Source of the DNA: Chloroflexota bacterium
GTDB taxonomy: Bacteria > Chloroflexota > Dehalococcoidia > Lucifugimonadales > UBA3495
DNA: 38,600 nucleotides
Direction of reading: 5' to 3'
Assembly: GCA_022566155.1 (NCBI GenBank)
Contig: JADFJS010000002.1
Span: forward strand, 1-38,600
Shown: positions 1,646 through 29,013 of the stretch, in pieces
Layout of the letters: each line of letters starts with the position of its first letter
Numbering within the stretch: the first letter of the stretch is position 1
Made by a program: the position numbers and the translations under genes
Notes under the pieces: model-generated
Told to the model about the DNA's origin: nothing
Seen by the model: only the letters and a program-made list of their open reading frames with translations
Database searches by the model: none

Positions 1646-2544
1646 TCGATTTTGAGTTTCACAGCCCCACCACCCTGGAGGAAGCCTTCGATCTGCTGGA
1701 GCAGTACGGAGAGGACGCCCGGGTGATAGCCGGCGGGACGGCGCTGGTGCTCCAGATGAAGCAGCGGTTCGCCCAGCCGGGCCACGTGATCGGCCTGAGA
1801 AAGATTCCGGGGTTGAACTCGATAGCGATTGAAGCTATGGGAAGCAACGGCGATACCGGCAGCGTGCGCATCGGGGCGCTGTGCACTCAACGATCTATCG
1901 AATATTCAGAGATCATTGGGCAGAAGCTGCCCCTCGTAGCGGAAACCTTCCGCCGGGTGGCCACCCCCAGGATACGCAGCATGGCAACCATCGGCGGCGG
2001 ACTGGTCCACGGCGACCCCAACCAAGACCCTCCGCCCACGCTGATCGCCCTGGGAGCGTCGGCGGTTTTGACCTCCAGCCGGGGCCAGCGCGTTGTGCCG
2101 GTGGCGGAACTGTTTCTCGACTACTTCGAGACAGACCTCCGGCCGGGGGAGATCCTTACCAGCGTGGTCGTACCCCAGGCGCCTCCGGGTTCCGGGGCAG
2201 CCTACCTCAAGTTCCTTCCCCGGACCGCCGACGATTACGCCACGGTGTCGGTCGCCGCGGTGGTTACCGCCGGAGAAGACAATATGTGCCGGGACGTCCG
2301 CATCGTACTGGGCTCTGTGGGCGTCACCCCGGTGCACGCGTCGGACGCCGAGGATAGCCTGCGAGGCCGGCCTCTCAACGAAGAAAATATCCGTGCCTGC
2401 GCCGCCATGGTCAGCGATCTGGTAGACCCTCTGGACGATTATCGCGGTTCTGCCGCATACAAGCGGGAGATGGCCCAGGTGTTTACCCGGCGGGCCATAC
2501 AGCAAGCAATGGCCGCTATGTCACCGGAAAAGAACAAGGATTAA
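1642..2544 (+). CDS. coxM: CoxM/CutM-like FAD-binding medium subunit
   Basis: AGGT and ATIGG FAD motifs, DYRGSAAYKR; ATGA overlap with coxS. Confidence 0.9.
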   Translation: MIDFEFHSPTTLEEAFDLLEQYGEDARVIAGGTALVLQMKQRFAQPGHVIGLRKIPGLNSIAIEAMGSNGDTGSVRIGALCTQRSIEYSEIIGQKLPLVAETFRRVATPRIRSMATIGGGLVHGDPNQDPPPTLIALGASAVLTSSRGQRVVPVAELFLDYFETDLRPGEILTSVVVPQAPPGSGAAYLKFLPRTADDYATVSVAAVVTAGEDNMCRDVRIVLGSVGVTPVHASDAEDSLRGRPLNEENIRACAAMVSDLVDPLDDYRGSAAYKREMAQVFTRRAIQQAMAAMSPEKNKD

Positions 2545-2559
2545 GCAAGGGATCATAGA

Positions 2560-3018
2560 TTGAAGCTGGAAAATCGCTGCCTGGTACCGGCGGACCTGGA
2601 CACCACCTGGGAATTGATCACCGACATTCCCCGGGCCGCCGCCTGCGTCCCCGGGGTAAAAGACGTTTTCCTCGAAGGGGAGAACCTGTACCGAGCCTCG
2701 CTTCAAGCGAGAGTTGGACCCATGGGATTCACCATGTCCGGGACCATCCTGGTGCTGGAGCAAGACCGGGAAAAGGGCGAGGCCAGGTTTCAGGTCAATG
2801 CCTCCGACCGGCGCCTGGGCGGCTCCATCCGGGCGGACATGACTTTGCGCCTGAGCGCTCAACCCCAGGGCCATACCGAGTTGCTCATCATCACCGACAC
2901 CACGTTTATGGGCAAGCTGGGAGAGATGGGACAACCCGTGATCCGCCGCAAGGCCAGCTCTACCCTGGAGCAGTTTGTCAAAAACCTGGCTAAATTATTA
3001 GAGACTCCCTCCGCCTGA
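2560..3018 (+). CDS. coxG: CoxG/SRPBCC family protein
   Basis: WELITDIPRAAACVPG and GKLGEMGQPVI motifs; position after coxSM. Confidence 0.8.
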   Translation: MKLENRCLVPADLDTTWELITDIPRAAACVPGVKDVFLEGENLYRASLQARVGPMGFTMSGTILVLEQDREKGEARFQVNASDRRLGGSIRADMTLRLSAQPQGHTELLIITDTTFMGKLGEMGQPVIRRKASSTLEQFVKNLAKLLETPSA

Positions 3019-3297
3019 CGCCTGTCCCGCCGCATCCTCCACTGTCCATCCCACGCCAAGCCGGAACGGAACGCCGGCACACCGCTATCTTTATCGACCG
3101 CAGGCTTTCTCTTTGTCCCTGAGTTAACGTATCGACCCTGGGCCTACATTGTCCTTTTTACCCTTTTCCCTCAACTCCCCTCTCGGTCCCGGAACGTAAT
3201 TGTTCCACACCGGGTCCCCCCAGCCACCCCACTCCAAGGTGCTGCCACCCACCCATAGGGTTTAACGCCCTGTGGGTAACCAAGGTGGCAACCCCGT

Positions 3298-3326
3298 GTG
3301 CCAGCGTTATGGGCCAACCCTACACT
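3298..3326 (+). promoter_or_regulatory. Candidate sigma70 promoter of the archaellum operon (GTGCCA-17 bp-TACACT)
   Basis: 4/6 and 4/6 matches to consensus with optimal 17-bp spacing. Predicted start about 3332 coincides with the base of a long hairpin. Confidence 0.45.
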
Positions 3327-3330
3327 TATC

Positions 3331-3417
3331 TGAACACCAGGGAACGGCGAGCCGCGGATGAGTGGGCCAGGGCAGAAGGCTTCCACATCCGCCGACAACG
3401 CCGTTCCTAGCGGTTCA
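3331..3417 (+). ncRNA. Structured 5' leader (long interrupted hairpin) upstream of arlB
   Basis: Nested pairings: TGAAC 3331-35 with GTTCA 3413-17; GGAACGGCG 3341-49 with CGCCGTTCC 3399-3407; GCGGATG 3354-60 with CATCCGC 3386-92. Confidence 0.5.
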
Positions 3418-3459
3418 CACATATGTGGGCAAATCTTAATTTCGAGAGGAGAGTTGACC

Positions 3460-4089
3460 ATGACCAGTATAAGGGGCAATTTTTTGCAGAGGCTACGGTC
3501 GCTGTTGCCCAGCCAACGAGGCATCACCGGACTTGAAACCGCCATCGTCTTGATCGCCTTCGTGGTGGTCTCGTCGGTGTTCGCCTTCGCGGCCCTGTCC
3601 ACCGGCCTGTTCTCCGCCGATAAAGCCAAAGACACCATTCAGGCAGGGCTTGCAGAGACCAGGGGCAGCATGGAGCTCAAAGGCTCTGTGGTGCTCACAT
3701 CGACCGTCGGCACCACCGGGGTTGTGTCCAACATCGCCTTCCAAGTGTCCAACGCCGCGGGCGGCGAGGCCATCGACCTGACCCCTGGCAAAACTATCAT
3801 CAAGTACAACGATGAAACCCAGTCGAGGATCTTCGACGCCGACAGTGGCTTTACCGTCACCCCAATCGGTAGTGCCGACAGCGACAAACTGCTTGAGCTA
3901 AAGGAGATCTACCAGATCGACATTATTAACCTTCATATCACCGGCGACAGTACCAGCAAGAATAATTTGTTGAACACGCTGGGTACCAACACGACCTTCA
4001 GCTTGGAAATAATTCCACCTAGGGGCGCAGTGCTCTTCATCGAACGCACCACGCCCGTTTACATGGACATCAGTACTTCGCTTGACTAA
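3460..4089 (+). CDS. arlB: Archaellin (archaeal flagellin ArlB/FlaB)
   Basis: Class III signal peptide QRG|ITGLETAIVLIAFVVVSSVFAF typical of archaellins; DSDKLLELKE motif; FSLEIIPPRGAVLFIERTTP C-terminus; GAGAGGAG RBS before ATG 3460. Confidence 0.93.
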   Translation: MTSIRGNFLQRLRSLLPSQRGITGLETAIVLIAFVVVSSVFAFAALSTGLFSADKAKDTIQAGLAETRGSMELKGSVVLTSTVGTTGVVSNIAFQVSNAAGGEAIDLTPGKTIIKYNDETQSRIFDADSGFTVTPIGSADSDKLLELKEIYQIDIINLHITGDSTSKNNLLNTLGTNTTFSLEIIPPRGAVLFIERTTPVYMDISTSLD

Positions 4090-4109
4090 CGGGCTACCTG
4101 TAAGTCGTG

Positions 4110-4138
4110 GGGCCGGTGGTACGCCAAGTACACCGGCC
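4110..4138 (+). terminator. GC-rich hairpin just after arlB (partial terminator or mRNA stabiliser)
   Basis: GGCCGGTG(G)TAC-GCCAA-GTACACCGGCC inverted repeat with no U-tract. Confidence 0.5.
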
Positions 4139-4280
4139 GGCACGGCAAATTCCGGCCCGGTCCAGCCAGCACAGTTAGTGGGCGCCTCACCCGAGCAGAC
4201 CTCGGCGGTGATATCCGTATCCCTGGAATCCACCACCGGGGCCTGTTCCCAAATACGACCTCCGGGCACAGGGATTCATC

Positions 4281-6065
4281 ATGGCGGATAAAGACACACG
4301 GGTAGACGCCCTGGAGGACGAGGTCAAGGTTCTCAAAGGCGAGGTCAGGCGGACGCTGGTGGACCTCCGGGCATTGCTGATGCGAGAGGACTCGCCCCTC
4401 AATGAAGGTTCGTTGGGACGCAGATCGACACCGATAGACTATGGCGCCGATGAAGGGCCTCCACAGGCACGAAAGGAAGTTACCGAGACGACAAAGGTGA
4501 TCGAGAACGAGCCGGCGGCGGCTGTACCGAGCGCCCCACAACCGGCTAATCCTGGTCAAGGAATCGGAAACGCCGCTCCACCATTTGCCGGTGTGGTCCC
4601 CGGTGGCATGTTTCCACCCCAAATGGGTCCTCAACCGGGGGCAGGTTGGCCCGGTCCTCAAGCAGTCCAAGCACCACCACCCCCAGCGCCAGCGCCAGCG
4701 CCAACACCACAAGCGTCGCCCGGCCTCGATGCGGCCATGGCCGAGCGAGAACGAAGGATGGTCGAACAGGAGCAAAGGATGGTGGAGCAGGAGCGGAGGA
4801 TCGCCGACCAGGAGCGGAAGATCGCCGACTCCGAGAGCGCCCGGGACCGCCGAGAACAGGACATCGCCAACGATGCAGTTAAACGGGAATCTCCCACTCC
4901 AGCCAGCCAGCCGGATTCCGTCGTGCCCGAAACAGTACGCACGTCTGTCGGAGGCAGGATGCAGGAAACGCCCACTCCAGCCAGCCAGCCGGATTCCAGC
5001 GTACCCGAAACAGTACGCACGCCTGACGAAGGCAGGATGCAAGAATCTACCCCTCCAGCCAACCAGCCGGACAGTGCATCCAAAACGGATCGCCCGCCCG
5101 AAGAAGTCAGGATGCAGGAAACACCGGCTCATGACAGGGAATCGGATCCTAGGCAGTCTGAGATGGAGCGCTCGTCCGTTGAAGTAGATCCGGAAATGAA
5201 CGGTATGGATCGGCCGGAGCCGCGGAAACGTCCTTCCGGCCGGATCCAAAACCAAGAACCCGAGGATGGTCAATCCGAGGAACCATCCCAGCCGAGACGG
5301 CTTGCCTCCCGTGGAGAACCCAGGCGTGAACCAGCGAACGACGATGTAGAGGTGGACTATGAGGATGGAGATCAGTTCGCCGGTAAGGATCAGATCGATG
5401 AACCCTATGATGACGAGTGGAACCAGCCGGACCGCGACATCTCATCTGGGCCCCGTCAAGAACAGCGGGGCCGGAAGCGAGTCTACTATGACGAAGACGC
5501 GGAGGCTGCCAGGCCTCGTTCCAGACTCCAGCATCAGGAGCAAGACTCGGCCGGCGCCTCTCAAGATTCTGATCGCCCTTCCCGCCGGCGGGTCAAGCCG
5601 GCGGAGTGGCGTCAACAGACCCAATCTGATAACGGACATGGTTACCATGAGAAATATGACGAGAATCAGAATATTAAACGCAACGGTACCGGCAGCCGGG
5701 TCTATGAAGAGTACTTTCAGCTCTTGTCTGAGACTGAGGAAAGCTACGAAGATAGCGGCGAAGCCTCCCCATCGGCGCCCATGGACATCAACCTGGTAGC
5801 CAGTTTGGTGCGCTGGGCATCGATCGCCAAACAAAGGGTGGGAGAGGACCGGTTATACGACATCCTGGAACTATACCTGCAATCGGGGCATGCTACCCCG
5901 GGGCTGCGCGAACTGCTAACACAAACCTCTGGGATGGCCGATGCTATGCCCCCTGAAACCAATCAAACCGCCCAAGAGTGTGTGGACCTGATATCCCACC
6001 TCCACGGCATACTCACCGGTTCCCTGGCCATCGCCAGAGTCCCACAGTTAAAGTTGCCGGCCTAG
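4281..6065 (+). CDS. ArlD/E (FlaD/E)-like archaellum accessory protein with a long disordered, repeat-containing middle
   Basis: N-terminal coiled coil; C-terminal LVRWASIAKQRVGEDRLYDILELYLQSG resembles the FlaD/E domain; lies between arlB and arlG. Confidence 0.7.
   Translation: MADKDTRVDALEDEVKVLKGEVRRTLVDLRALLMREDSPLNEGSLGRRSTPIDYGADEGPPQARKEVTETTKVIENEPAAAVPSAPQPANPGQGIGNAAPPFAGVVPGGMFPPQMGPQPGAGWPGPQAVQAPPPPAPAPAPTPQASPGLDAAMAERERRMVEQEQRMVEQERRIADQERKIADSESARDRREQDIANDAVKRESPTPASQPDSVVPETVRTSVGGRMQETPTPASQPDSSVPETVRTPDEGRMQESTPPANQPDSASKTDRPPEEVRMQETPAHDRESDPRQSEMERSSVEVDPEMNGMDRPEPRKRPSGRIQNQEPEDGQSEEPSQPRRLASRGEPRREPANDDVEVDYEDGDQFAGKDQIDEPYDDEWNQPDRDISSGPRQEQRGRKRVYYDEDAEAARPRSRLQHQEQDSAGASQDSDRPSRRRVKPAEWRQQTQSDNGHGYHEKYDENQNIKRNGTGSRVYEEYFQLLSETEESYEDSGEASPSAPMDINLVASLVRWASIAKQRVGEDRLYDILELYLQSGHATPGLRELLTQTSGMADAMPPETNQTAQECVDLISHLHGILTGSLAIARVPQLKLPA
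4749..4832 (+). repeat. Four 21-bp (heptad) coding repeats: ERRMVEQ/EQRMVEQ/ERRIADQ/ERKIADS
   Basis: Visible in both DNA and protein; coiled-coil register. Confidence 0.75.
4887..5125 (+). repeat. About 3 tandem 78-bp (26-aa) coding repeats
   Basis: CCCACTCCAGCCAGCCAGCCGGATTCC at 4893 and 4971, degenerate copy at about 5049; protein unit PTPASQPDSxVPETVRTxxxGRMQEx. Confidence 0.85.
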
Positions 6066-6098
6066 ATCGGCAGCCAATGAAATTCCCGGAGACATATC

Positions 6099-6566
6099 AT
6101 CGAAAAATCAATCTCCACAGCTATGTTCCTGATTGCCAGCGTAATCGCCGCGCTGGCCCTGACCAACGCGGTGCTGCCCGCAATGGGGAAAAGCGCCAGC
6201 GCCCTGGTTTCCGCCAATAAATCTGCCGCCGAGCGCATCAAGACCGATATTGCCATTGTTCACGCCACCGGAGACGCGGCCAATGACCAAGTCACCGTCT
6301 GGGTAAAGAATATTGGAACTCAATCAATCAAGCAAATCGACGCCAGCGACGTGTTTCTTACCACACCCAGCAGCGTGCTAAGACTGCCTTATGTAAGCAG
6401 TTGCGCCAGCGAGTGCTGGGATTATTCCATAGAAGGCGGCGGTGCCGCCTGGATCCAAGCGGTGACGGTCAAGTTTACTATAAAAACCAGCGTGGATACC
6501 GGCAATTACAATGTTTCCGTTGCCGTGGCCAACGCAGTTAGAGCCGACAAAGATTTCAGCGTCTAA
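6099..6566 (+). CDS. arlG: Archaellum stator protein ArlG (FlaG)
   Basis: N-terminal TM helix, ERIKTDIAIV and VWVKNIG motifs. First ATG is at 6123, but an in-frame ATC at 6099 follows the RBS CGGAGA. Confidence 0.85.
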   Translation: MEKSISTAMFLIASVIAALALTNAVLPAMGKSASALVSANKSAAERIKTDIAIVHATGDAANDQVTVWVKNIGTQSIKQIDASDVFLTTPSSVLRLPYVSSCASECWDYSIEGGGAAWIQAVTVKFTIKTSVDTGNYNVSVAVANAVRADKDFSV

Positions 6567-6612
6567 ATTTAACGTTTGGGGACGGAATCAACTTTGAGAA
6601 GAGGCAGGCCGC

Positions 6613-7131
6613 GTGGGCATCGTATTAGCGGGGTTTGTGGTAATCACCACCTTCTTGATGACCTCGGTGTTGATGTTTAGCGCATTTTTGTCCGCTTCTG
6701 TATCCCAGGGGGAATCATTGAGGGTGATCACTCACGTTAGCAGCGAAAGACTGGGCAGCGCACTATCCATAACTAGTGCATCCGTTGTCACCCCGGCTGG
6801 GCCGGACGTGGCGGTGCAGGTGGATAACAGTGGCAGCCAATCGGTGGTCCGCTTTGGCGAATTGGACGTGATCATAAAATACACCGATTCGGACAACACC
6901 GCGGCCCTGCGATACCTGGCGTATACCTCGGGCGCACTCGGCAACAACCAGTGGACGATCGCCACCACCGGGGTGCAGCCCGATAACTTCAACCCGGGGA
7001 TGTGGGACCCCGGTGAGACCCTGCCGATAGACCTGCGGGTGTCCCCAGCCATCAAGGCCGGGACCGCCGCAGAGGTAGTGGTGGGAACCCCATGGGGAGT
7101 AAACGATAAGAGTTCGATCGTCAACCCGTGA
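6613..7131 (+). CDS. arlF: Archaellum stator protein ArlF (FlaF)
   Basis: N-terminal TM helix, VQVDNSGS and FNPGMWDPGETL motifs; lies between arlG and arlH. Confidence 0.8.
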   Translation: MGIVLAGFVVITTFLMTSVLMFSAFLSASVSQGESLRVITHVSSERLGSALSITSASVVTPAGPDVAVQVDNSGSQSVVRFGELDVIIKYTDSDNTAALRYLAYTSGALGNNQWTIATTGVQPDNFNPGMWDPGETLPIDLRVSPAIKAGTAAEVVVGTPWGVNDKSSIVNP

Positions 7132-7210
7132 ACGTGCCGGTCCAATCCCGGTTAGTTGGCGAATGTGTCTACGTGCTGGCTGAAACGTATCCCCGAAAGG
7201 AGGTGACATC

Positions 7211-7933
7211 GTGACTACAGGCGCAATGGCGGATGCGGGAGGGATAATATCCACCGGAAGTAGCGAGATAGACAAGAAGCTGGGCGGCGGGATCCCTGTC
7301 GGGTCCCTGGTTCTGCTGGAGGGACAATCCGACTCCGGCAAGAGCGTCGTGTCTCAGCATTTCACCCATGGCTCATTGAACACTAGAATGTCGGCCGCCT
7401 ACTACACCACGGAAAACACGGTCAAGAGCCTGATGACCCAGATGGCCTCCCTTAACCTGGACGTCACCGATTACTTTCTGTGCGACCGATTGAGAGTTTA
7501 CCCCCTGGAGATGTCATCCACTAAGGAAAACGACACCAAGGAGGCGTTCCGGGTTCTTTTGGACCACTTCGACAGTTTACCCGTCAGGTTCAAACTGACG
7601 ATCGTGGACAGCCTTACCGGCCTGGTTTCCCACAGCGACGACCGGGCCATCATCGACTTCTTTGCCTCTTGTAAACAGCTCTGTGATCGAGGCCGCACGA
7701 TTATCGCCGTGGTCCACTCCTACGCCTTCGACGACCGCATGTTGATTCGTATACGTTCGCTGTGCGATGCACACCTGGTCCTGAAGGTGGACCAGGTGGG
7801 AGAGCGGTTGATCAAGATTATGGAGGTAGCGAAAGTTCGAAATGCCGACCAGTCCACGGGAAACATTATCAGCTTCGATGTGGAACCGGGTATGGGCATG
7901 AAAATCATCCCAATCTCAAAAGCTAAGGCTTAG
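7211..7933 (+). CDS. arlH: ArlH (FlaH) RecA/KaiC-like ATP-binding protein
   Basis: EIDKKLGGGIP, Walker A GQSDSGKS, YYTTENT, IVDSLT, FDVEPGMGMKIIP; GGAGGTG RBS. Confidence 0.95.
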   Translation: MTTGAMADAGGIISTGSSEIDKKLGGGIPVGSLVLLEGQSDSGKSVVSQHFTHGSLNTRMSAAYYTTENTVKSLMTQMASLNLDVTDYFLCDRLRVYPLEMSSTKENDTKEAFRVLLDHFDSLPVRFKLTIVDSLTGLVSHSDDRAIIDFFASCKQLCDRGRTIIAVVHSYAFDDRMLIRIRSLCDAHLVLKVDQVGERLIKIMEVAKVRNADQSTGNIISFDVEPGMGMKIIPISKAKA

Positions 7934-7936
7934 ATC

Positions 7937-9661
7937 ATGCCTGCAGGTGCTTTGCCATTCCCGGCCCAAAAAGGACACTCCCATAAGGGAGGAATCAAGA
8001 CTTGCCCGATGTTCAAGATGTTGCCGGCGGGTCTGCAAGAGGAGGCCAAGAAAAATGAGTTTTTACTGGACTACATCCACATGCTGCCGATGGACGAGGT
8101 GGGCATCCCGGAATATTACCCCGAACTGAATCGGGGCTTGGGGGATCTAAAAGACCCCAACCTTATCTATCCGGTGGGGGAACAAACCTACATTCACATC
8201 TTTGCCGACCAGACCGATAGCCGCGACTACTACATCGCCATCGAGCCCGGGATGACGCTGGATATGGACAGCCTGATGGAGGCCCTTGAAGACCGCCTGG
8301 TTGACTACGTAGACGAGCTGGACGACTTGGATGGCGCCCAAACGGACCGGGGGCAGGTGCTGCGGAACATCCTCGCCAAGGCCTGCATAGTTGTCGATGC
8401 CAAAGACCTCAAATCTCAACGGAAAAAGAACGAGAAGAAGGCCGCTGCCAGACTTCCGGTCAGCAAGGCCGAAATGGCTTCGCTACGGTACCAATTGATA
8501 CGCGACAAAGAAGGCATGGGCGTGATGGAGCCGTTGATCCTGGACCCTTACATCGAGGATATAAGCTGCAGCGGCCTGGGCTCATTGTTCCTGGAGCACA
8601 AGATCTTCAAGAGCCTGAAGACCAACATTTCATTCGGGTCCTTAGACGAGCTGGACACCTTTGTGATCCAACTGTCCGAAAAGATTGGGAAACCAGTCAC
8701 CTACCGAAACCCCATTGTAGACGCCGTTCTTCCCGACGGCTCCCGCATCAATCTCGTCTTCGGCGCCGACGTCTCCAAGCGGGGCAGCAATTTTACTATT
8801 CGAAAGTTCTCAGCCGAACCGTTGAGCATGATTGAGTTGGTGGAGTTCGGAGGGCTGACCTATGAAATGGCCGCCTACTTTTCTCTCGCCATGCTCCACG
8901 GCATGAACATGTTCATTGCCGGGGAAACGGCCTCGGGGAAAACCACGCTGATGAACGCCGTGACGGTATTTCTCCATCCAAATTCCAAGATTGTCAGCAT
9001 TGAGGACACACCCGAACTTCAGGTCCCTCATCCCAACTGGATCCGGGAGGTGATCAGGGGTAAGGCGGGAGACGACTCCTCTTCTTCGGTTACCATGTTT
9101 GACCTGCTGCGGGCGGCCCTAAGGCAGCGGCCCAACGAGATCATTATTGGCGAGATCCGAGGCGAGGAAGGGGCGATCGCATTCCAGGCGATGCAGACCG
9201 GCCATGCCTGCATGGCTACTTTCCACGCGGCTTCGGTCGAGAAGCTGATCCAACGCCTTACCGGCAGCCCCATCAACATTCCCAAGACTTATATCGACAA
9301 CCTCAACTTGGTGGTCATTCAGAGCTTGGTACGCCTGCCCAACGGCAAGGATGGCCGCCGGATCCTCAGCATAAATGAGATCGTAGGCTACGATTCGGCG
9401 ACAGATTCCTTCTCTTATATCGAAGTTTTTCACTGGAACCCTGTGGATGATTCCTACGAGTTTACCGGTTACATGAACAGCTACCTGCTGGAGGAGGTCA
9501 TCGCCTTCAAATTGGGTCTCCCTCCTCATCGAAAACGTGAAATCTACAAGGAGCTCAGCCGAAGGGCCACCATCCTGCGTAAGCTAAAAGATCAGGGAGT
9601 CACCGGGTTCTATGACCTCTTCAAAGTCATCTCGCAAGCGTCCCGCCAAGGTATCTTCTGA
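7937..9661 (+). CDS. arlI: ArlI (FlaI) archaellum assembly/rotation ATPase
   Basis: DPYIEDISC, Walker A GETASGKT, SIEDTPE, LRAALRQRPNEIIIGEIRG, AMQTGH...TFHA; FlaI-type N-domain NLIYPVG. Confidence 0.95.
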   Translation: MPAGALPFPAQKGHSHKGGIKTCPMFKMLPAGLQEEAKKNEFLLDYIHMLPMDEVGIPEYYPELNRGLGDLKDPNLIYPVGEQTYIHIFADQTDSRDYYIAIEPGMTLDMDSLMEALEDRLVDYVDELDDLDGAQTDRGQVLRNILAKACIVVDAKDLKSQRKKNEKKAAARLPVSKAEMASLRYQLIRDKEGMGVMEPLILDPYIEDISCSGLGSLFLEHKIFKSLKTNISFGSLDELDTFVIQLSEKIGKPVTYRNPIVDAVLPDGSRINLVFGADVSKRGSNFTIRKFSAEPLSMIELVEFGGLTYEMAAYFSLAMLHGMNMFIAGETASGKTTLMNAVTVFLHPNSKIVSIEDTPELQVPHPNWIREVIRGKAGDDSSSSVTMFDLLRAALRQRPNEIIIGEIRGEEGAIAFQAMQTGHACMATFHAASVEKLIQRLTGSPINIPKTYIDNLNLVVIQSLVRLPNGKDGRRILSINEIVGYDSATDSFSYIEVFHWNPVDDSYEFTGYMNSYLLEEVIAFKLGLPPHRKREIYKELSRRATILRKLKDQGVTGFYDLFKVISQASRQGIF

Positions 9662-11099
9662 TAACGCCGCAATCAGCTTCGATCTGCTGTCCAACCTCAC
9701 GTACATGGCCGCGTTGGCCACCGGCGGATCGGACCGCGACACGATTCTGAAATGGGCGATCAAGCAAGATTTCAAGACGGGCACCTTTTTCCGCCGCGTC
9801 TACCTCCTCTCCAAGCGGCTAGGGTTCGAGTACACCCGGTCATTTCGCATGGTTGCCGCCAAAGCCGGCGCCTCATCGGTAAAAAACCTTTTACTGCGGT
9901 TCGCGGGCGCCATCTCCTCCGGTGTCTCCGAGGCTGACTTTCTGGCCGAAGAGGCGAGGGTCGAACGGGACCTGTACATAAACGCCTATTACCGCAGCCT
10001 CGAAACCCTGACGAAGTGGGGAGATGCCTACGCGGCCCTGCTGGTGTCGGTTTCCCTGATAGTAGTAGTCGCGATGATGTCCACCATGATCAGCAACCTG
10101 GGTGCCACTTTCGTGATTATGCTTACCTCGACCATGGTCATGGTGTCTGCCTTTGGCGTATATATCATCTATCGGACCGCGCCATACGAAATCAAGACAT
10201 ATCAAAACAACCGTGGACCAGTGGAGAGGGTTTGGGCCAAGCGTCTGTTTTACGCGCTGGTACCCGCGAGTATCTTGATTGGCATATTTCTCGGCTACAT
10301 TTACGGCTTCCACTATTTCCTCTTCTCCTTGGGGATTGCTCTTTTCCCTTCGGGCTTCATGGCCTGGATGGACAATGGCAAGGTTAACCAGCGAGACCAG
10401 GAAGCCGCGACCTTCGTGCGTTCCCTTGGCAATGTAACAGCCTCCCTGGGCACTACGCTAGGCGCCGCATTGATAAAGATAGACCGGCGCTACCTGGGCA
10501 GTCTGGAACCGTCTATCAGACGTCTGCAAGTACGTCTTAGCAGGGGAATCAACACCCAAAAGTGTTGGGACGCCTTCCGGGACGAGGTGGGCAGCGAGCT
10601 GATGAACCGGACTTCGCGCATGTTTGTCGACGGTGTCAGCCTGGGTGGACCTCCGGAAAAGGTGGGCGCCATCGCGGCGGAATACTCCCAGGACGCCGCA
10701 ACCATGCGGGCCCGCCGCATGGTGTCGGCCGCTCCATTCTCCTTTCTAGTGATTCCCCTCCACTTCGCCATGACCGGGTTGATGACCTTCGTCCTGGAGA
10801 TAATCAGAGCGTTCAATACACGAATAGAGATCGCCTCGGCAGAGCTGGCAGCGCAGTCGGGCGACGGGGCAATGGGCCTGTTGCCGGACTTGCCGATCTT
10901 CCAGACTCAGGATATGACCTTGATGTCTAACATCACCCTGGTCGCTCTGATATCCATGACCGTATCCAATGCCCTGGCGCCCAAATTCGCGTTGGGGGGG
11001 CATTCCCTGATCGTCGGCGTATTCGGCTCGATCACCTGCTTGATGACGGCTTTCAACATGGCGGTGATCCCCCCCATTGCCGCCCAGGTGATGCTATAG
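9612..11099 (+). CDS. arlJ: ArlJ (FlaJ) polytopic membrane platform protein
   Basis: LTYMAALATGG, multiple TM segments, two cytoplasmic domains; directly follows arlI. Confidence 0.9.
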   Translation: MTSSKSSRKRPAKVSSDNAAISFDLLSNLTYMAALATGGSDRDTILKWAIKQDFKTGTFFRRVYLLSKRLGFEYTRSFRMVAAKAGASSVKNLLLRFAGAISSGVSEADFLAEEARVERDLYINAYYRSLETLTKWGDAYAALLVSVSLIVVVAMMSTMISNLGATFVIMLTSTMVMVSAFGVYIIYRTAPYEIKTYQNNRGPVERVWAKRLFYALVPASILIGIFLGYIYGFHYFLFSLGIALFPSGFMAWMDNGKVNQRDQEAATFVRSLGNVTASLGTTLGAALIKIDRRYLGSLEPSIRRLQVRLSRGINTQKCWDAFRDEVGSELMNRTSRMFVDGVSLGGPPEKVGAIAAEYSQDAATMRARRMVSAAPFSFLVIPLHFAMTGLMTFVLEIIRAFNTRIEIASAELAAQSGDGAMGLLPDLPIFQTQDMTLMSNITLVALISMTVSNALAPKFALGGHSLIVGVFGSITCLMTAFNMAVIPPIAAQVML

Positions 11100-11201
11100 G
11101 GTCAACTCGAACCACCTTTTCGCCCATGTTGGGTCACCACCGAAGCAGTAGAGGCGCTGCCTCCGAACCAAACAGGTAATCAATGCGAAGGAGTATCAGA
11201 G

Positions 11202-11915
11202 ATGGGCCTACTGGGCAAGATTATCAAACGGCAGAGTGCCGAGGACGCGGAAGATCTTGACTTCGAAGAAGAATTAGTCGATTCCCTGGACATGCCTGAC
11301 GAGGAGAGTGGCTCCAGTACCGGAATCCTGGGTAAAGTCCTGAAGTGGCGCGGGAAGGGTGACTCGGAAGATGCGGACGAGGACGAGGAGCCGGACGAGA
11401 TAGAGGATACGGATGAGACGGAGGATGCGGACGAAACGGATTCTGATGAGTACCCCAGCAACGCCGACGCTGCCGGCACCGCGGAAGAGGACCCTCCTGT
11501 CCAGGTAGTACGGTTGGAAGGTATTCCAGATGTACACCCTGTCGGTGATTCAAATACCAACATGACGCCGGGGCGGGGACCCGGGGCTGCCGCGGGCGCC
11601 GGGGGATCCGCCGGGCCCAGCGCTGGGCAGGATCCCGCTGCGGATTCTTCCCTGGAAGACGGCAACAATGCTGCCGAATCGCCCATAGCTGAGGTGGATG
11701 ACGCCGAGGGGGATGACACTAAAGAAGGCGACTCCAAGCAAGGCGGCGCCAGCGTACCAGACCTCGGCATTTCTTTGGAAGATATATTTGGGGAGGAGGA
11801 GGAGGTAGACGAAGCCCTTCGAGACCTCGCCGACTTCGTGGAAGATGTCGCGGCCAAAGATTTGGCCAGCGACCTGCAAGAGTTCTTAGAAGAACTGGAA
11901 GCCAGGCAGAAATGA
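11202..11915 (+). CDS. Highly acidic hypothetical protein at the end of the arl operon
   Basis: GAAGGAG RBS; D/E-rich; two amphipathic motifs (MGLLGKIIKR, GILGKVLKWR); helical C-terminus. Confidence 0.7.
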   Translation: MGLLGKIIKRQSAEDAEDLDFEEELVDSLDMPDEESGSSTGILGKVLKWRGKGDSEDADEDEEPDEIEDTDETEDADETDSDEYPSNADAAGTAEEDPPVQVVRLEGIPDVHPVGDSNTNMTPGRGPGAAAGAGGSAGPSAGQDPAADSSLEDGNNAAESPIAEVDDAEGDDTKEGDSKQGGASVPDLGISLEDIFGEEEEVDEALRDLADFVEDVAAKDLASDLQEFLEELEARQK

Positions 11916-11970
11916 CGAAGCTATCGCAGGATAGCAGGGCGTTGACATGGTGCGCCGCCGAGGTGCAATC

Positions 11971-12000
11971 TTGACATAAAAATGCAGGCCTGAATATACT
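11971..12000 (+). promoter_or_regulatory. sigma70 promoter of glmS (TTGACA-18 bp-TATACT)
   Basis: Perfect -35 and 5/6 -10. Confidence 0.7.
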
Positions 12001-12095
12001 AACCATAACAGGCCGGGGTTGGTATAAGACGGTTCTCGCCTTGGTCTGAGCCCTAATGCCGGACTGCTGTCCGAGTGGGTCTGCGAGGGGGAACT

Positions 12096-13958
12096 GTGTG
12101 TGGAATCGTTGGATACATAGGCCACCAGGATGCCTGGCCTATCATCCTTGAAGGGCTTCAGCGGCTGGAGTACCGGGGCTATGACAGCGCGGGTATCGCC
12201 ATCATAGACCATGCCGGAGAGTTACAGTTTCGGAAGACGGTGGGCAAAGTCAACGGGCTAATCTCCAACGGCCAAGAAGACTGGATCCAAGGCTCCATCG
12301 GTTTGGGGCACACCCGCTGGGCCACACACGGAAGACCGTCCCACGCCAACGCCCATCCCCATACCGATTGTAGCCGCCGCATCGCAGTGGTGCACAACGG
12401 CATCGTGGAAAATTTCCTGGAGCTCAAACGGGGTCTACTGGCCAGCGGCCATCGCTTCTCTTCCGAAACCGACTCCGAAGTTATCTCCCACCTCATCGAG
12501 GAGGGTATGGATCGGGGCCTCGATTTCGAGGCGGCGTTCCTTAACATGGGTCAAGCGGTGCAAGGCTCTTCGGCAATCACTGCCATGCTGCGTGGAGAGG
12601 AAGGCATGCTCTGCGCCCTCCGCCTGGGCTACGCCGGAGGGATCGTTGTGGCCCACCGGGAGAATCAAGGCATCATCGGCAGCGACCTGCCCGCGATCCT
12701 GCCACTGCTGCGCCTTCAACCCCTTGGGGAACCCGTCGGATTTCTAGACGCGGGTGAGATGGCTGTAGTTACCCGGGAAGGGGTCAAATACAGAGACCTG
12801 GCCGGGAACCACATAGACAAGCAGCTGCGCGTGGTCGTTCCGGAAGACGTCCTGATCGACAAGGGCGGCTATCGCCACTTCATGCTCAAGGAGATAATGG
12901 AGCAGCCCCAATCGGTGGCCGGCGCGTTAAGGGAACGGGTGGACTTCGAGGCGGGCCTGGTTGTGCTTCCGGATTTCCCTATCTCCGACCAGGATGTGAC
13001 CAACCTGCAGCGGGTGATGCTCATCGGCTGCGGCACCAGTCTCCACGCCGCCCAGGTGGGACGCCATCTGGTGGAGCGGCTGGCCGGCCTGCCCGCGGAG
13101 GCCGAAAGCGCCTCCGAGTTTCGCTACCGCGATCCTTACATCGACGAAAGGACCCTGGTGATCGCCGTTGCCCAGTCGGGCGAAACCGCCGACACCGTTT
13201 CAGCGATGCAGATGGTGCGTGAGAAGGGCGGACGGTTGATCACCATCTGCAATGTGGATGGCAGCCAGGCCACCCGTTTGGCCGAGGGCACCCTGCTGAT
13301 GCGTTCCGGCATCGAGATCGGTGTGGCCAGCACCAAGACGTTCATCACCGCGCTGACTCTGTTGAACCTGCTTGCCACCTATCTCGGTCAGGTCAGGGGA
13401 ACGCTGGACCGCCAGCAGTCACGCCAGATCGTGGATAGCCTGGCTCAATGTCCCCGGCTTATCGGCGAGATGCTGGCCGACACCACTTTGTACCAACGGC
13501 TGGCGCGGCGGTTTCATACCTACAACAATTTCCTATTTCTGGGCCGGGGAATCAACGCTCCCATCGCCATGGAGGGAGCGCTCAAGCTGAAGGAGATCAG
13601 CTACATCCACGCCGAAGGCTATCATGCTGGGGAGATGAAACACGGCCCCATCGCCCTCATCGACCAGGGGATGGCCACCCTGGCCCTGGCGCCTCGAGAT
13701 GCGCTATACGACAAGGTTGTGAACAATATCAAAGAGGTTAAAGCCCGGGATGGCGTGGTATTGGCCGTGGGCACCCAGGGCGATGAGGAGCTTGCCGGTA
13801 TGGTGGACGAAATGCTCCCCATCCCGGCTGCTCCCGAGATTCTCATCCCCTTGTTAGCCACCGTGCCTCTGCAACTGTTGGCCTACCACATCGCGCTGCA
13901 ACGGGGTTGCGATGTGGACCAGCCCCGCAACCTGGCCAAGACCGTGACCGTGGAGTAA
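12096..13958 (+). CDS. glmS: Glutamine--fructose-6-phosphate aminotransferase
   Basis: GTG start then catalytic CGIVG, EYRGYDSAG, GHTRWATHG, C-terminal DQPRNLAKTVTVE. Confidence 0.97.
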   Translation: MCGIVGYIGHQDAWPIILEGLQRLEYRGYDSAGIAIIDHAGELQFRKTVGKVNGLISNGQEDWIQGSIGLGHTRWATHGRPSHANAHPHTDCSRRIAVVHNGIVENFLELKRGLLASGHRFSSETDSEVISHLIEEGMDRGLDFEAAFLNMGQAVQGSSAITAMLRGEEGMLCALRLGYAGGIVVAHRENQGIIGSDLPAILPLLRLQPLGEPVGFLDAGEMAVVTREGVKYRDLAGNHIDKQLRVVVPEDVLIDKGGYRHFMLKEIMEQPQSVAGALRERVDFEAGLVVLPDFPISDQDVTNLQRVMLIGCGTSLHAAQVGRHLVERLAGLPAEAESASEFRYRDPYIDERTLVIAVAQSGETADTVSAMQMVREKGGRLITICNVDGSQATRLAEGTLLMRSGIEIGVASTKTFITALTLLNLLATYLGQVRGTLDRQQSRQIVDSLAQCPRLIGEMLADTTLYQRLARRFHTYNNFLFLGRGINAPIAMEGALKLKEISYIHAEGYHAGEMKHGPIALIDQGMATLALAPRDALYDKVVNNIKEVKARDGVVLAVGTQGDEELAGMVDEMLPIPAAPEILIPLLATVPLQLLAYHIALQRGCDVDQPRNLAKTVTVE

Positions 13959-21810: not shown

Positions 21811-24339
21811 CTACTGCGGCCAGTCTAGGATCGTGACTTCACCATCCGAGGTCACGATGGCCCGGTACTGGGTCACTGTGCCGTCGGGCGACACGGCGGT
21901 CATGTTGTACAGAGTGCCCCCGGTGCTGCTGCCGCCCTCGGCGGTTACCACGGTTTGGACCGCCGCCAGGGCCGCTTCCACGATCGCTCCGACCAGGTCG
22001 AGCAGAGCCTGGAAGTCGTCGGCGTGAAAAACGTGGTCCGAGTAGTAGGGGTCCGGGTTGGTGTCGTCGAATACAGCTTCGGGGTCGTCGGGGTCATAGG
22101 CGATCGCGAAGAGATCTTCTCCATCCACGTCGGCGGCCGCCCCTACGCCCACGGCAAAGACCTCGGCGCCGCTGCCGGCCGAGGCGTTGGCGATACTCTG
22201 GCCGGGCATGGATGACCCGTCAACGATCACGATCAAAAGGTTGGGAACCTCAGCGCGGTCCCCCAGGCCGCTGTCAAACTGGGTCCCGGTGACAAAGTTA
22301 AATGCCGACACCAGGTTAGCACCGCCGCCCTGGCTCGGCGCCGGCGCCAGATTCTCATCGATCCCGTCGTGCAATGGGAGGCTGCTGGAGGCGCCGGTGG
22401 TTATCTTCAAGAAGGATGAATGTTCGTCGGCGCCTCCCCAGCGGTATTGGAAAAGCCGTTGGTTGACATTGGACTTGTCGCTCCAGACCTCCACACGTAC
22501 TCGTAGCTTGTCTCCAACCTCCACGTCGATGCTTGACGGATGGGCGAAGGACAGCACTTCATCGTCGAAGTTGGGTGGTGTGGTGGCTGACGCGGTAGTG
22601 AAGACGGTGACAATGCCGCCGCCGTCCTCCACGAGCTGCAATTTCCACCGCCAGCGGTTCTGTGAGTGGCCCGACTCGATCCACTGGGTGAATGCCCACG
22701 TGGCCGCAGAAATCGAACCGGCGGAGCCGAAGGCGGTTGTTTCCCAGAAGTCCGAAACCTCTTCCCACTCACCTTCCACCGAGAAATCGGTCCCTTCGGC
22801 CGGGGTATGGCTGCCTTCGGTTGAAGCGCATCCTTGAACAGTGCCCAATGGATATGGAGAGCCGCCGCCACTATTTGGAAAATAAAGGGTCGCGTTGATG
22901 GGGGCTGGAGAGTGGGAGTCCACGTCGGTCATATCGGCCACGGAGCTGGACTGGCCGCCAAAACGAGTAAGGCCGATCCTTATCCTGCCCTCGGTCGTTT
23001 CCAGGCTAAACCCGTCAACCATCGCGTTGGCCGCTTGCCTGAGCTGGACTAACTGGCAGTCATCGACGCTGCCGCTGTTGTCCAGAAGGAGCACGGTGTC
23101 GGCAAACGCAATGGCCCAGCTGTTGAATCCGACCGGTTCATAGATCAACTGTATCTCGTTGAAGAAGGCCAAACCGGGGTCCGCCTTGGTGGTGGCTTTC
23201 AGCGTCTGGATAAGCTCCTGACCCGCGGCGATGGTGAACAGGGGAACATCGTCGTCCCCGGTCTCCCAGGTCAGCGTGCAACGCTGCAGGCCGGTTATAT
23301 CAGGGGGCTGGGTGCAAGGTGCCGGGACCGACGTTGGATCGGAGGAGCTGATGCCGCTGCTGGAGCCCGCCTGGTAGATGAATCCCGGGGGAAGGATGTC
23401 TACCATCTTGGTCACCGGCAGCGCGTTGGAGGTGACATTCTCAACGCTCACGGTGTAGGTAACTTCGGTCTCCCCCGGGGCCAAGATCCGAATATCTGTT
23501 ACCTTTTTACGCACCAATAGCTCCAGGTTGAAACCGCACTTTGTGCCGCCGTCCCCAACGGTTACCTCGGCGGTATAGGGCGTGTGGACCTCCACGGTGG
23601 AAGCCGGGTCCCCGATCAGGTAGCTCATGGTCACTTTGTTGTAGTAGATCCCGTCGGGCAGAGTCCCGGTCGCCTCGAATGTCAGCGTCTGAATATCCTG
23701 TGGGGCAATGACGATGACCGGTGAGAAATCCCAGGTTAGCTGGTCGGGTTCGTCCCCACAGCGTTGGTCTCCAGCGGCTAGGGAGATGTCCGGATTGCCG
23801 CTAAAATTAAGGACACCATTGAAGAAACCCTCGGTCGTGTTATCGGTGTACTGAAACAGCGGGGGCAGGTAATCGATGAGTTTCTCCAGGGATATCGAGC
23901 TGGTGCCCTGGTTTTTCAAGGTGATAGTGTAGGTGAAGGTGGTAAGGGTATTCAGCGTCGCCTTGTTGGGGGTAACCTCCTTGAAGCCGCTCTGTATCTC
24001 TTGAAAGCTGTAGCCTGGCGAATCGCCGGGCGACGCAGGCAGCTCGGTTGCCGTTAGCGTAATCTGGTCGTCGCAGAATGTGAGGGTTTCCTCGCCGCCG
24101 GGGTTGTCATCAAACCAGGCCAGCCAGCGTTCCGGATCAAGAGCCAGATAGCGTATATATTCACGTACGCCCAAGTCGCAATATTGGCGCTTGAGGATCT
24201 TGGTTTTGACCCGCGAGTCGATAGCGATGGTGCTGGACAAGCTCAAGGCCGCCGTAATGATGGGCACACCAAAGGCCATAAATGCCAGGACCAACAATAT
24301 GGCCACCCCACCTCTCTCGCCGGTCAACAGAGACCTCAT
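21811..24339 (-). CDS. Giant PilX-like minor pilin fused to two DUF11-like Ig domains and a vWA domain (putative tip adhesin)
   Basis: ERGG|VAILLVLAF prepilin lacking Glu5; two TYT(I/V)xxxN...DxLPPxFxY repeats; MIDAS DNSGS, IVIVDG, VFAVGVG. Confidence 0.75.
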   Translation of the reverse strand: MRSLLTGERGGVAILLVLAFMAFGVPIITAALSLSSTIAIDSRVKTKILKRQYCDLGVREYIRYLALDPERWLAWFDDNPGGEETLTFCDDQITLTATELPASPGDSPGYSFQEIQSGFKEVTPNKATLNTLTTFTYTITLKNQGTSSISLEKLIDYLPPLFQYTDNTTEGFFNGVLNFSGNPDISLAAGDQRCGDEPDQLTWDFSPVIVIAPQDIQTLTFEATGTLPDGIYYNKVTMSYLIGDPASTVEVHTPYTAEVTVGDGGTKCGFNLELLVRKKVTDIRILAPGETEVTYTVSVENVTSNALPVTKMVDILPPGFIYQAGSSSGISSSDPTSVPAPCTQPPDITGLQRCTLTWETGDDDVPLFTIAAGQELIQTLKATTKADPGLAFFNEIQLIYEPVGFNSWAIAFADTVLLLDNSGSVDDCQLVQLRQAANAMVDGFSLETTEGRIRIGLTRFGGQSSSVADMTDVDSHSPAPINATLYFPNSGGGSPYPLGTVQGCASTEGSHTPAEGTDFSVEGEWEEVSDFWETTAFGSAGSISAATWAFTQWIESGHSQNRWRWKLQLVEDGGGIVTVFTTASATTPPNFDDEVLSFAHPSSIDVEVGDKLRVRVEVWSDKSNVNQRLFQYRWGGADEHSSFLKITTGASSSLPLHDGIDENLAPAPSQGGGANLVSAFNFVTGTQFDSGLGDRAEVPNLLIVIVDGSSMPGQSIANASAGSGAEVFAVGVGAAADVDGEDLFAIAYDPDDPEAVFDDTNPDPYYSDHVFHADDFQALLDLVGAIVEAALAAVQTVVTAEGGSSTGGTLYNMTAVSPDGTVTQYRAIVTSDGEVTILDWPQ

Positions 24340-24881
24340 CAGTCCAGTTTCCTGATGTGGGTTGTGAGACTGATGCTTTCCGTTGTACCTCGATCGGCAT
24401 CAACCGCCAGGTCGAATTTGAGGTCGTTATTGCAAAGGGAGAAGCCCACGGACCCTGATACAACTTCCCTGGCTACGACGGTTGTTAAACCGTCATAGTC
24501 TCTGTTCAGGGTGTCGCCCGTCACCAGGTAGGTGACTACGTGGGACCCACTGCCGTCGCTCAGAATCAAGGTCACGCTGTTGGCTGGTGAGGTGGGATTA
24601 CAGGAGAGGTTGGTCCCAGCCGGAGGCGGCCCATCCAAGACATTTTCCGCTTTCAGAGCATCGCCGGCGAACCTGCTGCCGGCGTGGCGCAGCTCCATCG
24701 TGGCCACCGCGCCGTCGCGCCAGTACCTCTGAATGCTGTGGACCTGGAATAGCGCGCCGCCAATCATACCCGTGGCCATGGTGAGAAGGCCCACGGCAAT
24801 GACCAACTCTATCAGGGTGAATCCACCACCGCCGGCCAGAGTTGATTTCAAAGCCTTGGCTTTTTCCAGTATTGTCGCCAA
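24339..24881 (-). CDS. Minor type IV pilin (PilW/PulJ-like)
   Basis: GG|FTLIELVIAVGLL N-methylation motif. Confidence 0.85.
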   Translation of the reverse strand: MATILEKAKALKSTLAGGGGFTLIELVIAVGLLTMATGMIGGALFQVHSIQRYWRDGAVATMELRHAGSRFAGDALKAENVLDGPPPAGTNLSCNPTSPANSVTLILSDGSGSHVVTYLVTGDTLNRDYDGLTTVVAREVVSGSVGFSLCNNDLKFDLAVDADRGTTESISLTTHIRKLD

Positions 24882-25124
24882 CTGTTGCTGCTCCGTTGGG
24901 CACGGCGATCAAACTACCGATTACTCAGACATTGCCGGAGTTTCTACTACAGGTGCAATACTGTGCCCATCTGCCGAGTCGTAGCTTGGGAGGTCCCAGA
25001 CCGATCGTGGGAGAGATCGATAGGCCCTGCCGGCTCCGGTATTGCCACCAAACTTTGGTATGTGCAGTGTGCCGTTGGGCGGGATCTGGAACCGGAAATG
25101 CCCGGCAATGCCGTGCCGGAGAGG

Positions 25125-25619
25125 CTAGTTGGCCCTCAGCGTCTCCAATACCAGCACAGCCCGCCCCTCCACGCTGACGGTTACCACCACTCTTTCAACG
25201 GTCCCCTCGTAGCTGTCGGAGGCCTGCAACTCCAACGCTACGGCGCAGATGCTATAGCCGGTGGAGGAACCGCAGGCATTCGCCTCGGCGAGAGTATCGT
25301 ACGCCACGGGCTGGGACTCAGCGGGCTTGTAGGCCTGATTGAATACGGACTCCATCTGGTTGCGGGCGAGGCGCTCGGCGATTGAATGGTCTTCCACTAA
25401 ACTGGCCGAAATGTGGGCCGTGCGGACGCCCAGCACCACGGCCGTACCCACCGCTCCGAAAATAGTTATCGCCAGGACAACCTCTATCAACATCTGGCCC
25501 GAGGAATCCCGGGCCAGCCTCCAGGGTTCCAGCCAGAACCCCCGGCCCATCCGCCGCAGGAAGGCTAGTGCACGTGCTGAGCCAGTTGTTGCGATCCATT
25601 TAAAAGCTGGAAATAACAT
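25125..25619 (-). CDS. Minor type IV pilin (PilV/PulI-like); start uncertain (25550, 25619 or 25724)
   Basis: SG|QMLIEVVLAITIFG motif, AERLARNQME, C-terminal VERVVVTVS strand. Confidence 0.75.
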   Translation of the reverse strand: MLFPAFKWIATTGSARALAFLRRMGRGFWLEPWRLARDSSGQMLIEVVLAITIFGAVGTAVVLGVRTAHISASLVEDHSIAERLARNQMESVFNQAYKPAESQPVAYDTLAEANACGSSTGYSICAVALELQASDSYEGTVERVVVTVSVEGRAVLVLETLRAN

Positions 25620-25780
25620 TTTTGCTAGGTTCTTCCTGGTGCCGGCTCTTGCCCATCTTCTAAAGCCTAGGAACAGCAACGCCCGGCATTTGCTGCATAG
25701 TGCTGCCGGGCATTGCTGTCCCACTAACCTATCATCGATGGATGGCGCCCCACCGCCAGCTTAGAGCCCTTGGGGCACCG

Positions 25781-28977: not shown

Positions 28978-29013
28978 TATCTATGGTGAAGGCACGAATA
29001 TGGTCTATCGGCG

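Follow-up and report, generated by a model that had tools for sequence, protein, structure and literature searches.

Gene clusters for the archaellum, an archaeal motility machine, have been described in Chloroflexota from metagenome-assembled genomes (MAGs; Hug 2013, via citing papers) and in cultured SAR202 strains (Lim 2023, PMC10444878), and the machinery was reported in 243 of 3,780 Chloroflexota genomes (Sivabalasarma 2025, PMC12488501). According to the text of the latter study, Chloroflexota clusters are of the arl2 type, with arlG preceding arlF and the peptidase gene located outside the locus, and archaella and flagella are mutually exclusive in this phylum (PMC12488501). Swimming has been shown for Litorilinea aerophila, whose filament structure was determined by cryo-electron microscopy at 2.7 Å, with a mature ArlB that begins with Ile, and whose archaella were made only on soft agar (PMC12488501). 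In the ArlIJ tree of the same study, a Chloroflexota clade lies inside the archaeal archaella, for which horizontal transfer from euryarchaea is described, and SAR202 members are said to have an archaeal-like PibD (PMC12488501). Here we analysed a stretch of 38,600 nucleotides (the window), which represents one entire contig of a Chloroflexota MAG (1.87 Mb in 179 contigs, 67% complete, 2.6% contamination) and contains eight consecutive intact open reading frames (ORFs), separated by short gaps or overlaps, at positions 3460-11915 of the forward strand. With a probability of roughly 0.88, this locus is a genuine arl2-type archaellum operon between coxG and glmS, vertically inherited at this site and deleted in some relatives. 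An initial annotation, which regarded archaella in Chloroflexota as recent rather than unprecedented, agrees with these publications, by which they are now well documented.

The eight genes, with their matches in Pfam and NCBIfam scans, are as follows.

3460-4089, forward strand: arlB, archaellin; PF01917 (Arch_flagellin) 82.3 bits (cut-off 29.5), TIGR02537 N-terminal domain 28 bits (cut-off 20).
4281-6065, forward strand: 594-amino-acid protein at the ArlC/D/E or ArlX position; assigned by position and two-module architecture.
6123-6566, forward strand: arlG, stator-type; NF052591 41 bits, E 1.9e-10, below the cut-off of 110; Arch_flagellin 27.8-33 bits.
6613-7131, forward strand: arlF, stator-type; FlaF_Ig-like 26.2 bits (cut-off 28.4), NF052590 (ArlF) E 1.8e-4.
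7211-7933, forward strand: arlH, KaiC-like ATP-binding regulator of ArlI; NF004723 278.5 bits (cut-off 194), NF052589 209.9 bits (cut-off 215).
7937-9661, forward strand: arlI, motor and assembly ATPase; NF058587 equivalog, 662 bits (cut-off 550).
9612-11099, forward strand: arlJ, polytopic membrane platform; NF004703 376 bits, E 1.9e-112, residues 14-492 of 495, below the cut-off of 570.
11202-11915, forward strand: acidic last gene encoding 237 amino acids, without a known family match.

ArlI, ArlH and ArlB exceed curated cut-offs. The NF058587 model that identifies ArlI passed its cut-off in only the 4 archaeal genomes among 14 control genomes, and the best PDB match of ArlI is FlaI of Sulfolobus acidocaldarius (421 bits, compared to 169 bits for CpaF). 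Matches of ArlI to T2SSE and TadA/BasE-type models, which are common to all ATPases of its superfamily, would be expected if the locus encoded a Tad pilus, an archaeal-type adhesion pilus or a bindosome instead of an archaellum. We consider this highly improbable, as all other NCBIfam models score 180 bits or less, including TadA TIGR03819 (156 bits, cut-off 373) and BasE (180 bits, cut-off 1000), and as ArlH, ArlF, ArlG and an Arch_flagellin filament protein are all encoded in the locus. Plasmid-borne relatives recovered by tblastn with ArlI were haloarchaeal pilus ATPases and CpaF alone, the best being only 39% identical across 70% of the query. By score, ArlI thus groups with FlaI rather than TadA.

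The Walker A residues G43, K44 and S45 of ArlH and the Walker A motif GETASGKT of ArlI are invariant in 37-row alignments, in line with the intact Walker motifs noted previously. ArlJ has several hydrophobic segments and matched no family other than ArlJ/FlaJ. ArlG consists of an N-terminal membrane helix (hydrophobic residues 1-22) and an archaellin-like domain, and ArlF of an N-terminal membrane helix (hydrophobic residues 1-31) and an Ig-like domain; the order G before F, already pointed out in the initial annotation, can be read directly from the sequence. The open ORFs, the family scores and the bacterial flanks described below bear out its central claim of an intact arl operon at 3460-11915 in a bacterial chromosome. 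Its gene inventory agrees with the scans for six named arl genes, three of them (arlG, arlF and arlJ) as best matches below cut-off, and is to be extended by the gene at 11202-11915, which lies within the same range and had been left unnamed.

The start of arlJ is ambiguous, being either ATG 9612, with a 50-nt overlap with arlI, or ATG 9705. Contigs from two RNA-library runs match arlI up to 9610 and then, where arlI and arlJ overlap, differ from the window for 20 letters, which may represent a strain variant. Some Chloroflexota genomes contain two tandem ArlI genes (G104:C1:1554455-1557806 and G170:C5:13210-16569), and two separate arl loci within one MAG were observed three times (L005/L018, L013/L083 and L010/L081).

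Upstream of the operon, the window encodes coxS/M/G-like genes, and downstream glmS, a trehalose-synthase-like glycosyltransferase (treT) and other bacterial housekeeping genes; the ORFs directly adjacent to the operon are coxG and glmS. These family matches confirm the bacterial nature of the flanks. A scan of one genome per GTDB species yielded 108 confirmed relatives of ArlI, the best 80 of which were analysed at the locus level. All 80 carry Chloroflexota, Dehalococcoidia or SAR202 in their record titles, with ArlI identities of 50-78%, and tblastn identified arlH in 78, arlJ in 73, arlG in 63 and arlB in 58 of these 80 loci. The nearest named relatives of the window lineage include a MAG of the "SAR202 cluster". 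Four MAGs with differing isolate names (L005-L008) share with the window the whole gene order from coxS/M/G through arlB to arlJ, the last gene, glmS and treT.

The incompleteness and fragmentation of the source MAG, its 2.6% contamination and a modest dip in GC content over the operon would be compatible with an assembly or binning artefact that joined archaeal DNA to a bacterial contig. However, identical junctions are present in the four further MAGs, and both edges of the operon are spanned, with few mismatches, by contigs that stem from two DNA runs of separate studies (left junction, 2110-3572 and 2320-3572; right junction, 11468-13000 and 5032-12193). Furthermore, 15 DNA runs from 6 studies, mostly labelled as marine sediment metagenomes, contain at least 0.86 of the sampled words of the window stretch, and the empty site of a relative bears a scar of the operon (see below). 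The shared junctions, the bridging contigs and the bacterial flanks exclude a chimeric junction and an archaeal origin of the contig, and the chance of an artefact is close to negligible. The claim that the contig is not archaeal and its junctions are not chimeric thus stands on the synteny with four MAGs and on independent metagenome contigs across both edges. Together, these data support the placement of the arl operon in a Dehalococcoidia/SAR202-like Chloroflexota chromosome of a marine-sediment bacterium.

Among the 41 genomes of the window's family and order, its own genome included, ArlI exceeded the cut-off in four, and glmS is present in 38, of which 30 glmS loci were compared. The operon is located between coxG and glmS in the window's locus and in G008, whose GlmS is identical to that of L005. 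In five relatives (G010, G020, G021, G022 and G006), coxM-coxG lies directly upstream of glmS and the site is devoid of arl genes, while the other 23 glmS loci have no coxG within the 1.5-kb flank. In a quick GlmS tree of 33 rows, with SH-aLRT (a likelihood-ratio branch test) as the only measure of support, occupied and empty sites are interspersed, with at least three changes forced by well-supported branches, and the arl-bearing L007 is sister to the empty G010 (SH-aLRT 99). The 681-nt spacer of G010 aligns to L007 in two pieces, the first comprising the 310 nt directly upstream of arlB (74% identity) and the second (81% identity) the final 65 nt of the last gene together with the sequence leading up to glmS. 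In this way, the Shine-Dalgarno site and ATG of arlB run directly into the ~22 terminal codons of the last gene. These fused remnants show a one-step deletion of the entire operon, from arlB to the last gene, and they also mark the acidic gene as part of the operon unit.

The interspersed sites, as well as G006, which combines an empty coxG-glmS site with an ArlI gene on a separate contig, could alternatively reflect an operon that moves laterally within the family as a cassette, with its patchiness being due to gains rather than to vertical inheritance with loss. The composition of the operon could be taken in the same direction. Its GC content is 56.8%, compared to 60.0 ± 1.2% in equal-size genome windows (2 of 381 being equally low), and its tetranucleotide distance is exceeded by 2 of 137 genome windows, placing it in the extreme 0.5-1.5%. 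In contrast, arl genes and flanks do not differ in GC content at third codon positions (GC3, 0.71-0.74 in the arl genes), which locates the shift in amino-acid make-up and not in codon usage. The absence of an obvious composition break, as initially described, therefore holds for the host-like GC3 and has to be qualified for the modest GC and tetranucleotide dip. Lateral movement as a cassette appears quite unlikely, since the last-gene remnant joined to the arlB start in G010 indicates a deletion and not an unoccupied target, and since ArlH/I/J identities parallel those of GlmS and CoxM in the five syntenic genomes (for L006-L008, ArlI 89.5% and GlmS 87.7%, with other pairs near 70-78%). In addition, the operon is bordered directly by coxG and glmS, although no search aimed at repeats or mobility genes was run. 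The parallel divergences, the host-like GC3 and the deletion scar in a relative support a picture in which the operon has long been inherited vertically at one site and repeatedly lost, and the old, ameliorated presence in the lineage proposed earlier is well in accord with them. A transfer from archaea, as described in PMC12488501, would precede this history.

The 594-amino-acid protein at the scaffold position consists of an N-terminal coiled-coil motif, a disordered linker of ~450 amino acids and a C-terminal four-helix domain of ~88 amino acids. Neither the whole protein nor its N- and C-terminal parts matched Pfam up to E 10, and no NCBIfam match was obtained. Likewise, 0 of 28 family members matched any Arl model in Pfam or NCBIfam, and the single match to PF04659 (Arch_fla_DE) among 53 family members searched against Pfam had an E value of 0.0024. 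PF04659 gave no match at E<=10 over the window's own genome and one match (E 0.058) across the whole of five arl-bearing genomes. The label "arlD/E-like" given to this protein previously is thus not sustained by any Arl model in Pfam or NCBIfam. Furthermore, a profile of the family revealed no link to ArlC/D/E among PDB sequences, and an AF2 structure model of the C-terminal domain, with four helices and a pLDDT confidence of 84, had no match among PDB folds at E<=1e-3. A word-indexed profile search returned 66 matches, none of which bears a Pfam domain, and an exhaustive search recovered 633 cluster representatives at E<=1e-3, the best 150 of which all belong to the close family. A protein-atlas neighbour with a score of 0.84 is a lead only.

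Both modules of the 594-amino-acid protein are real and operon-specific. A hidden Markov model (HMM) of the C-terminal domain matched in 65 of the 80 related loci and, in the window's own genome, this ORF alone among 12,014, and the N-terminal coiled-coil motif was identified in 64 of 81 sources. This motif also occurs alone in 27 loci, where an ORF of 56-67 amino acids directly precedes the gene of the 594-amino-acid family:

L025:5986-6174: standalone coiled-coil ORF, motif only.
L027:6021-6224: standalone coiled-coil ORF, motif only.
L049:5329-5502: standalone coiled-coil ORF, motif only.
24 further loci: standalone coiled-coil ORFs, motif only.

These standalone ORFs in Chloroflexota recall the fusion and fission arrangements reported for arlCDE in the text of PMC13705601. 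Judging from position and architecture, the protein has the position and probably the role of ArlCDE/ArlX.

The product of the acidic last gene starts with a basic amphipathic peptide, continues with an acidic, disordered region and ends in a conserved helical module of ~40 amino acids; neither Pfam nor NCBIfam contains a family matching this protein. The same three-part design recurs in the ORF that follows the operon in related loci, with a short N-terminus that is again basic and amphipathic, an acidic, disordered centre and a helical stretch of similar kind at the C-terminus. An HMM of the C-terminal module (52 positions, iterated from seven close sequences) identified exactly one ORF per locus in 66 of the 80 related loci as well as in the window, always on the operon strand and always last. 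The gene is placed after arlJ in loci with H-I-J order and after arlI in those with J...H-I order, and it stays with arlHIJ in split clusters. In the window's own genome, the HMM matched this ORF alone among 12,014 ORFs, even at E<=10. Among 401 evenly drawn Chloroflexota genomes, ArlI was over the cut-off in seven, and the profile detected the module in three of these, each time ~2 kb downstream of arlI, and in none of the 394 ArlI-negative genomes; recovery from three of seven positive genomes indicates a limited whole-genome sensitivity. A database search with the module returned 183 proteins; among the matches listed, all are "hypothetical", none has a Pfam domain and, where organism names are given, these are Chloroflexota or Dehalococcoidales. 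No mention of such a gene was found in passages from the text of papers on archaella.

In two loci (L015:4383-5909 and L024:11160-12689), the C-terminal module ends proteins of ~508 instead of ~200 amino acids, which may be fusions or longer forms. Contigs of both DNA runs that span the junctions contain a 6-nt in-frame insertion relative to the window at 11374, within the acidic disordered region of the last gene.

CheF is reported to be absent from Chloroflexota, and another component may link signalling to the motor (PMC12488501). The last-gene family is a candidate for this link. Its product could replace CheF as an adaptor or tether the membrane to the ArlHIJ core. That it represents an undescribed, archaellum-specific family restricted to Chloroflexota, and that an archaeal motor requires this bacterial addition in order to run in a bacterial cell, is a tentative proposal which we regard as possible, though doubtful.

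ArlB has a 21-amino-acid class III leader ending in ...QRG, followed by the mature end ITGLE, with Ile first and Glu at +5, and one hydrophobic N-terminal segment. The leader ending in Gly and the hydrophobic helix following it match the class III signal peptide attributed to arlB earlier. The start at ATG 3460 is preceded by a Shine-Dalgarno site (GAGAGGAGAG) and aligned with the starts in L005-L008; Shine-Dalgarno sites in the operon had been noted in the initial annotation. A longer ORF from 3358 was rejected as arlB, since ATG 3460 with its Shine-Dalgarno site aligns to the four related loci. Apart from the archaellin matches of ArlG/F, ArlB is the sole archaellin of the assembly. The assembly, from a genome 67% complete, contains a single Peptidase_A24 gene on contig C76, which is of the bacterial PilD type with an A24_N_bact domain and is located near a PilB-like ATPase and a PilS-like kinase; in control searches, A24_N_bact matched bacterial control genomes only. 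Three ArlI-positive relatives that are 89-92% complete likewise encode one A24 peptidase each, of the bacterial type.

The same contig as the operon carries a bacterial type IV pilus cluster at 21811-32019 on the reverse strand, which includes, besides several ORFs without a family match, the following genes.

30238-32019, reverse strand: PilB with MshEN domain.
29014-30231, reverse strand: PilC/T2SSF.
25781-26158, reverse strand: N_methyl pilin.
21811-24339, reverse strand: 842-amino-acid VWA/DUF11 protein.

The leader of this pilin (25781-26158, reverse strand) ends in ...QKG and is followed by FTLIE, and thus Gly at -1 and Glu at +5 are common to the pilin and ArlB. The simplest reading would be that one bacterial PilD serves both filaments, and ArlB, a filament protein of archaeal type, appears to rely on bacterial PilD in this SAR202-related lineage.

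About 130 nt upstream of arlB, a non-coding block at 3284-3333 (forward strand) has invariant columns across five syntenic loci and contains a TACACT -10-like hexamer at 3321-3326; the region of this block is kept at the operon-less site of G010. It may be a promoter, an operator or another regulatory site. The sigma70-like promoter suggested previously was not recovered, as a generic sigma70 scan found 5 sites compared to 4.6 expected and called none upstream of arlB; overall, promoters and terminators were called about as often as expected by chance. The best sigma70-like match of the region (11971-12000, TTGACA-18-TATACT, 11 of 12 positions) is located directly 5' of glmS, suggesting that glmS is transcribed independently of the arl operon.

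Based on family membership and on experiments in L. aerophila and archaea, we infer that ArlI hexamers on the ArlJ platform would assemble the ArlB filament and then rotate it by ATP hydrolysis, with ArlH modulating ArlI. Prior to assembly, the bacterial-type PilD, whose gene lies on contig C76, would cleave pre-ArlB behind Gly21 of the leader, as suggested by the shared Gly-1/Glu+5 motif. ArlF and ArlG, which each combine an Ig-like domain with a single membrane helix, could serve as the stator in a monoderm envelope, and the 594-amino-acid protein would fill the cytoplasmic scaffold role of ArlCDE/ArlX, as its position and architecture suggest. The acidic last gene may encode a lineage-wide accessory of the ArlHIJ core, for which a membrane-tethered adaptor is our best guess. 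Swimming is predicted for this organism with a chance of about two in three.

Several observations weigh against a functional archaellum operon. ArlJ, ArlG and ArlF have specific best matches that are below curated cut-offs, so that the family assignments proposed earlier are upheld by cut-off for ArlB, ArlH and ArlI and only as best matches for these three, and the 594-amino-acid protein did not match the available models for ArlC/D/E or ArlX. Archaeal-type PibD, Flagellin_N and CheW were not found in the assembly, which are weak absences in a genome that is 67% complete. Contigs from two RNA-Seq libraries of two studies match arlH, arlI and the arlJ/last-gene region identically or nearly so; DNA carry-over is possible, and these contigs cannot show transcription. 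In addition, no archaella were seen in the cultured SAR202 strains with arl clusters according to the text of PMC10444878, and the whole-operon loss in relatives indicates that the operon is dispensable.

The operon might accordingly be intact but not used for swimming here, being either a silent or decaying relic or the source of a filament for adhesion or another role. The cultured arl-bearing strains without visible archaella (PMC10444878), the deletion of the entire operon in the close relative G010, the occurrence of ArlI over the cut-off in just 4 of 41 relatives and the CheW gene not found in this 67% complete genome are all in keeping with such a scenario. We nevertheless regard it as unlikely. 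All eight ORFs are open with invariant catalytic motifs, ArlH, ArlF and ArlG belong to the rotary machine only, and L. aerophila is reported to produce archaella only under inducing conditions (PMC12488501). Furthermore, among the 40 of 61 strain variants listed from two DNA runs, none is located in arlG, arlF or arlH, four in arlI and arlJ, eight in arlB and 10 in the 594-amino-acid gene, a distribution from a partial list that gives a hint only at retained use.

Striking as it is for Bacteria to use a motility machine of archaeal type, this has been in print from 2013 to 2025 and was shown experimentally in L. aerophila (PMC12488501). As the archaellum in Chloroflexota is already published, the window adds one carrier, from marine sediment. 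What appears new are two operon-specific families, the acidic last gene especially, the putative reliance on a bacterial PilD and the direct evidence of whole-operon loss. Both families, the scaffold-position protein and the acidic last gene, are confined to Chloroflexota arl operons and lack a curated model. Work in this field is explicitly in search of a component that would couple the motor of these bacteria to signalling or to the envelope; if the above proposal is true, the last-gene family is the bacterial addition that the archaeal motor needs in a bacterial cell. The scar in the near relative G010 further shows that clean whole-operon loss is at least part of the reason for the patchy occurrence of the operon.

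Compared with the named systems, the locus most closely follows the pattern described for L. aerophila and the Chloroflexota clade in the text of PMC12488501, with arlB, then arlG before arlF, arlH, arlI and arlJ in one locus, a class III peptidase encoded elsewhere and a mature archaellin with Ile first. In both cases, bacterial flagellum genes were not found and a bacterial type IV pilus coexists (PMC12488501). In contrast to L. aerophila, a member of the Caldilineales, the host of the window is a Dehalococcoidia/SAR202-like marine-sediment MAG with a predicted archaellum, and cheY, pilN and pilO neighbours were not seen beside its operon. While an archaeal-like PibD is described for SAR202 (PMC12488501), only a bacterial-type PilD was found in the 67% complete window genome and in the three ArlI-positive relatives. 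'Candidatus Lucifugimonas marina' (Lim 2023, PMC10444878) shares the Dehalococcoidia host, the flaGFHIJ order and a Peptidase_A24 candidate encoded elsewhere, but has six tandem and six scattered flaB genes compared to one arlB in the window assembly, and the text of its description mentions no gene between flaB and flaG or after flaJ.

The Tad pilus is the other case in which Bacteria acquired a type IV filament machine from Archaea (PMC12488501), with a distantly related ATPase; however, TadA/CpaF scores are far under those of FlaI, and Tad systems are without ArlH, ArlF, ArlG and archaellin. With the archaeal arl2 clusters of Sulfolobus acidocaldarius and Archaeoglobus fulgidus, the window shares the order B-(X or D/E)-G-F-H-I-J, in addition to the 421-bit match of ArlI to S. 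acidocaldarius FlaI. It differs from them in a scaffold-position protein that matches neither Arch_fla_DE nor another model, in the bacterial-type PilD that would take the place of PibD/ArlK in its genome, and in the extra acidic last gene, whose relatives, among the matches listed with source names, belong to Chloroflexota or Dehalococcoidales only.

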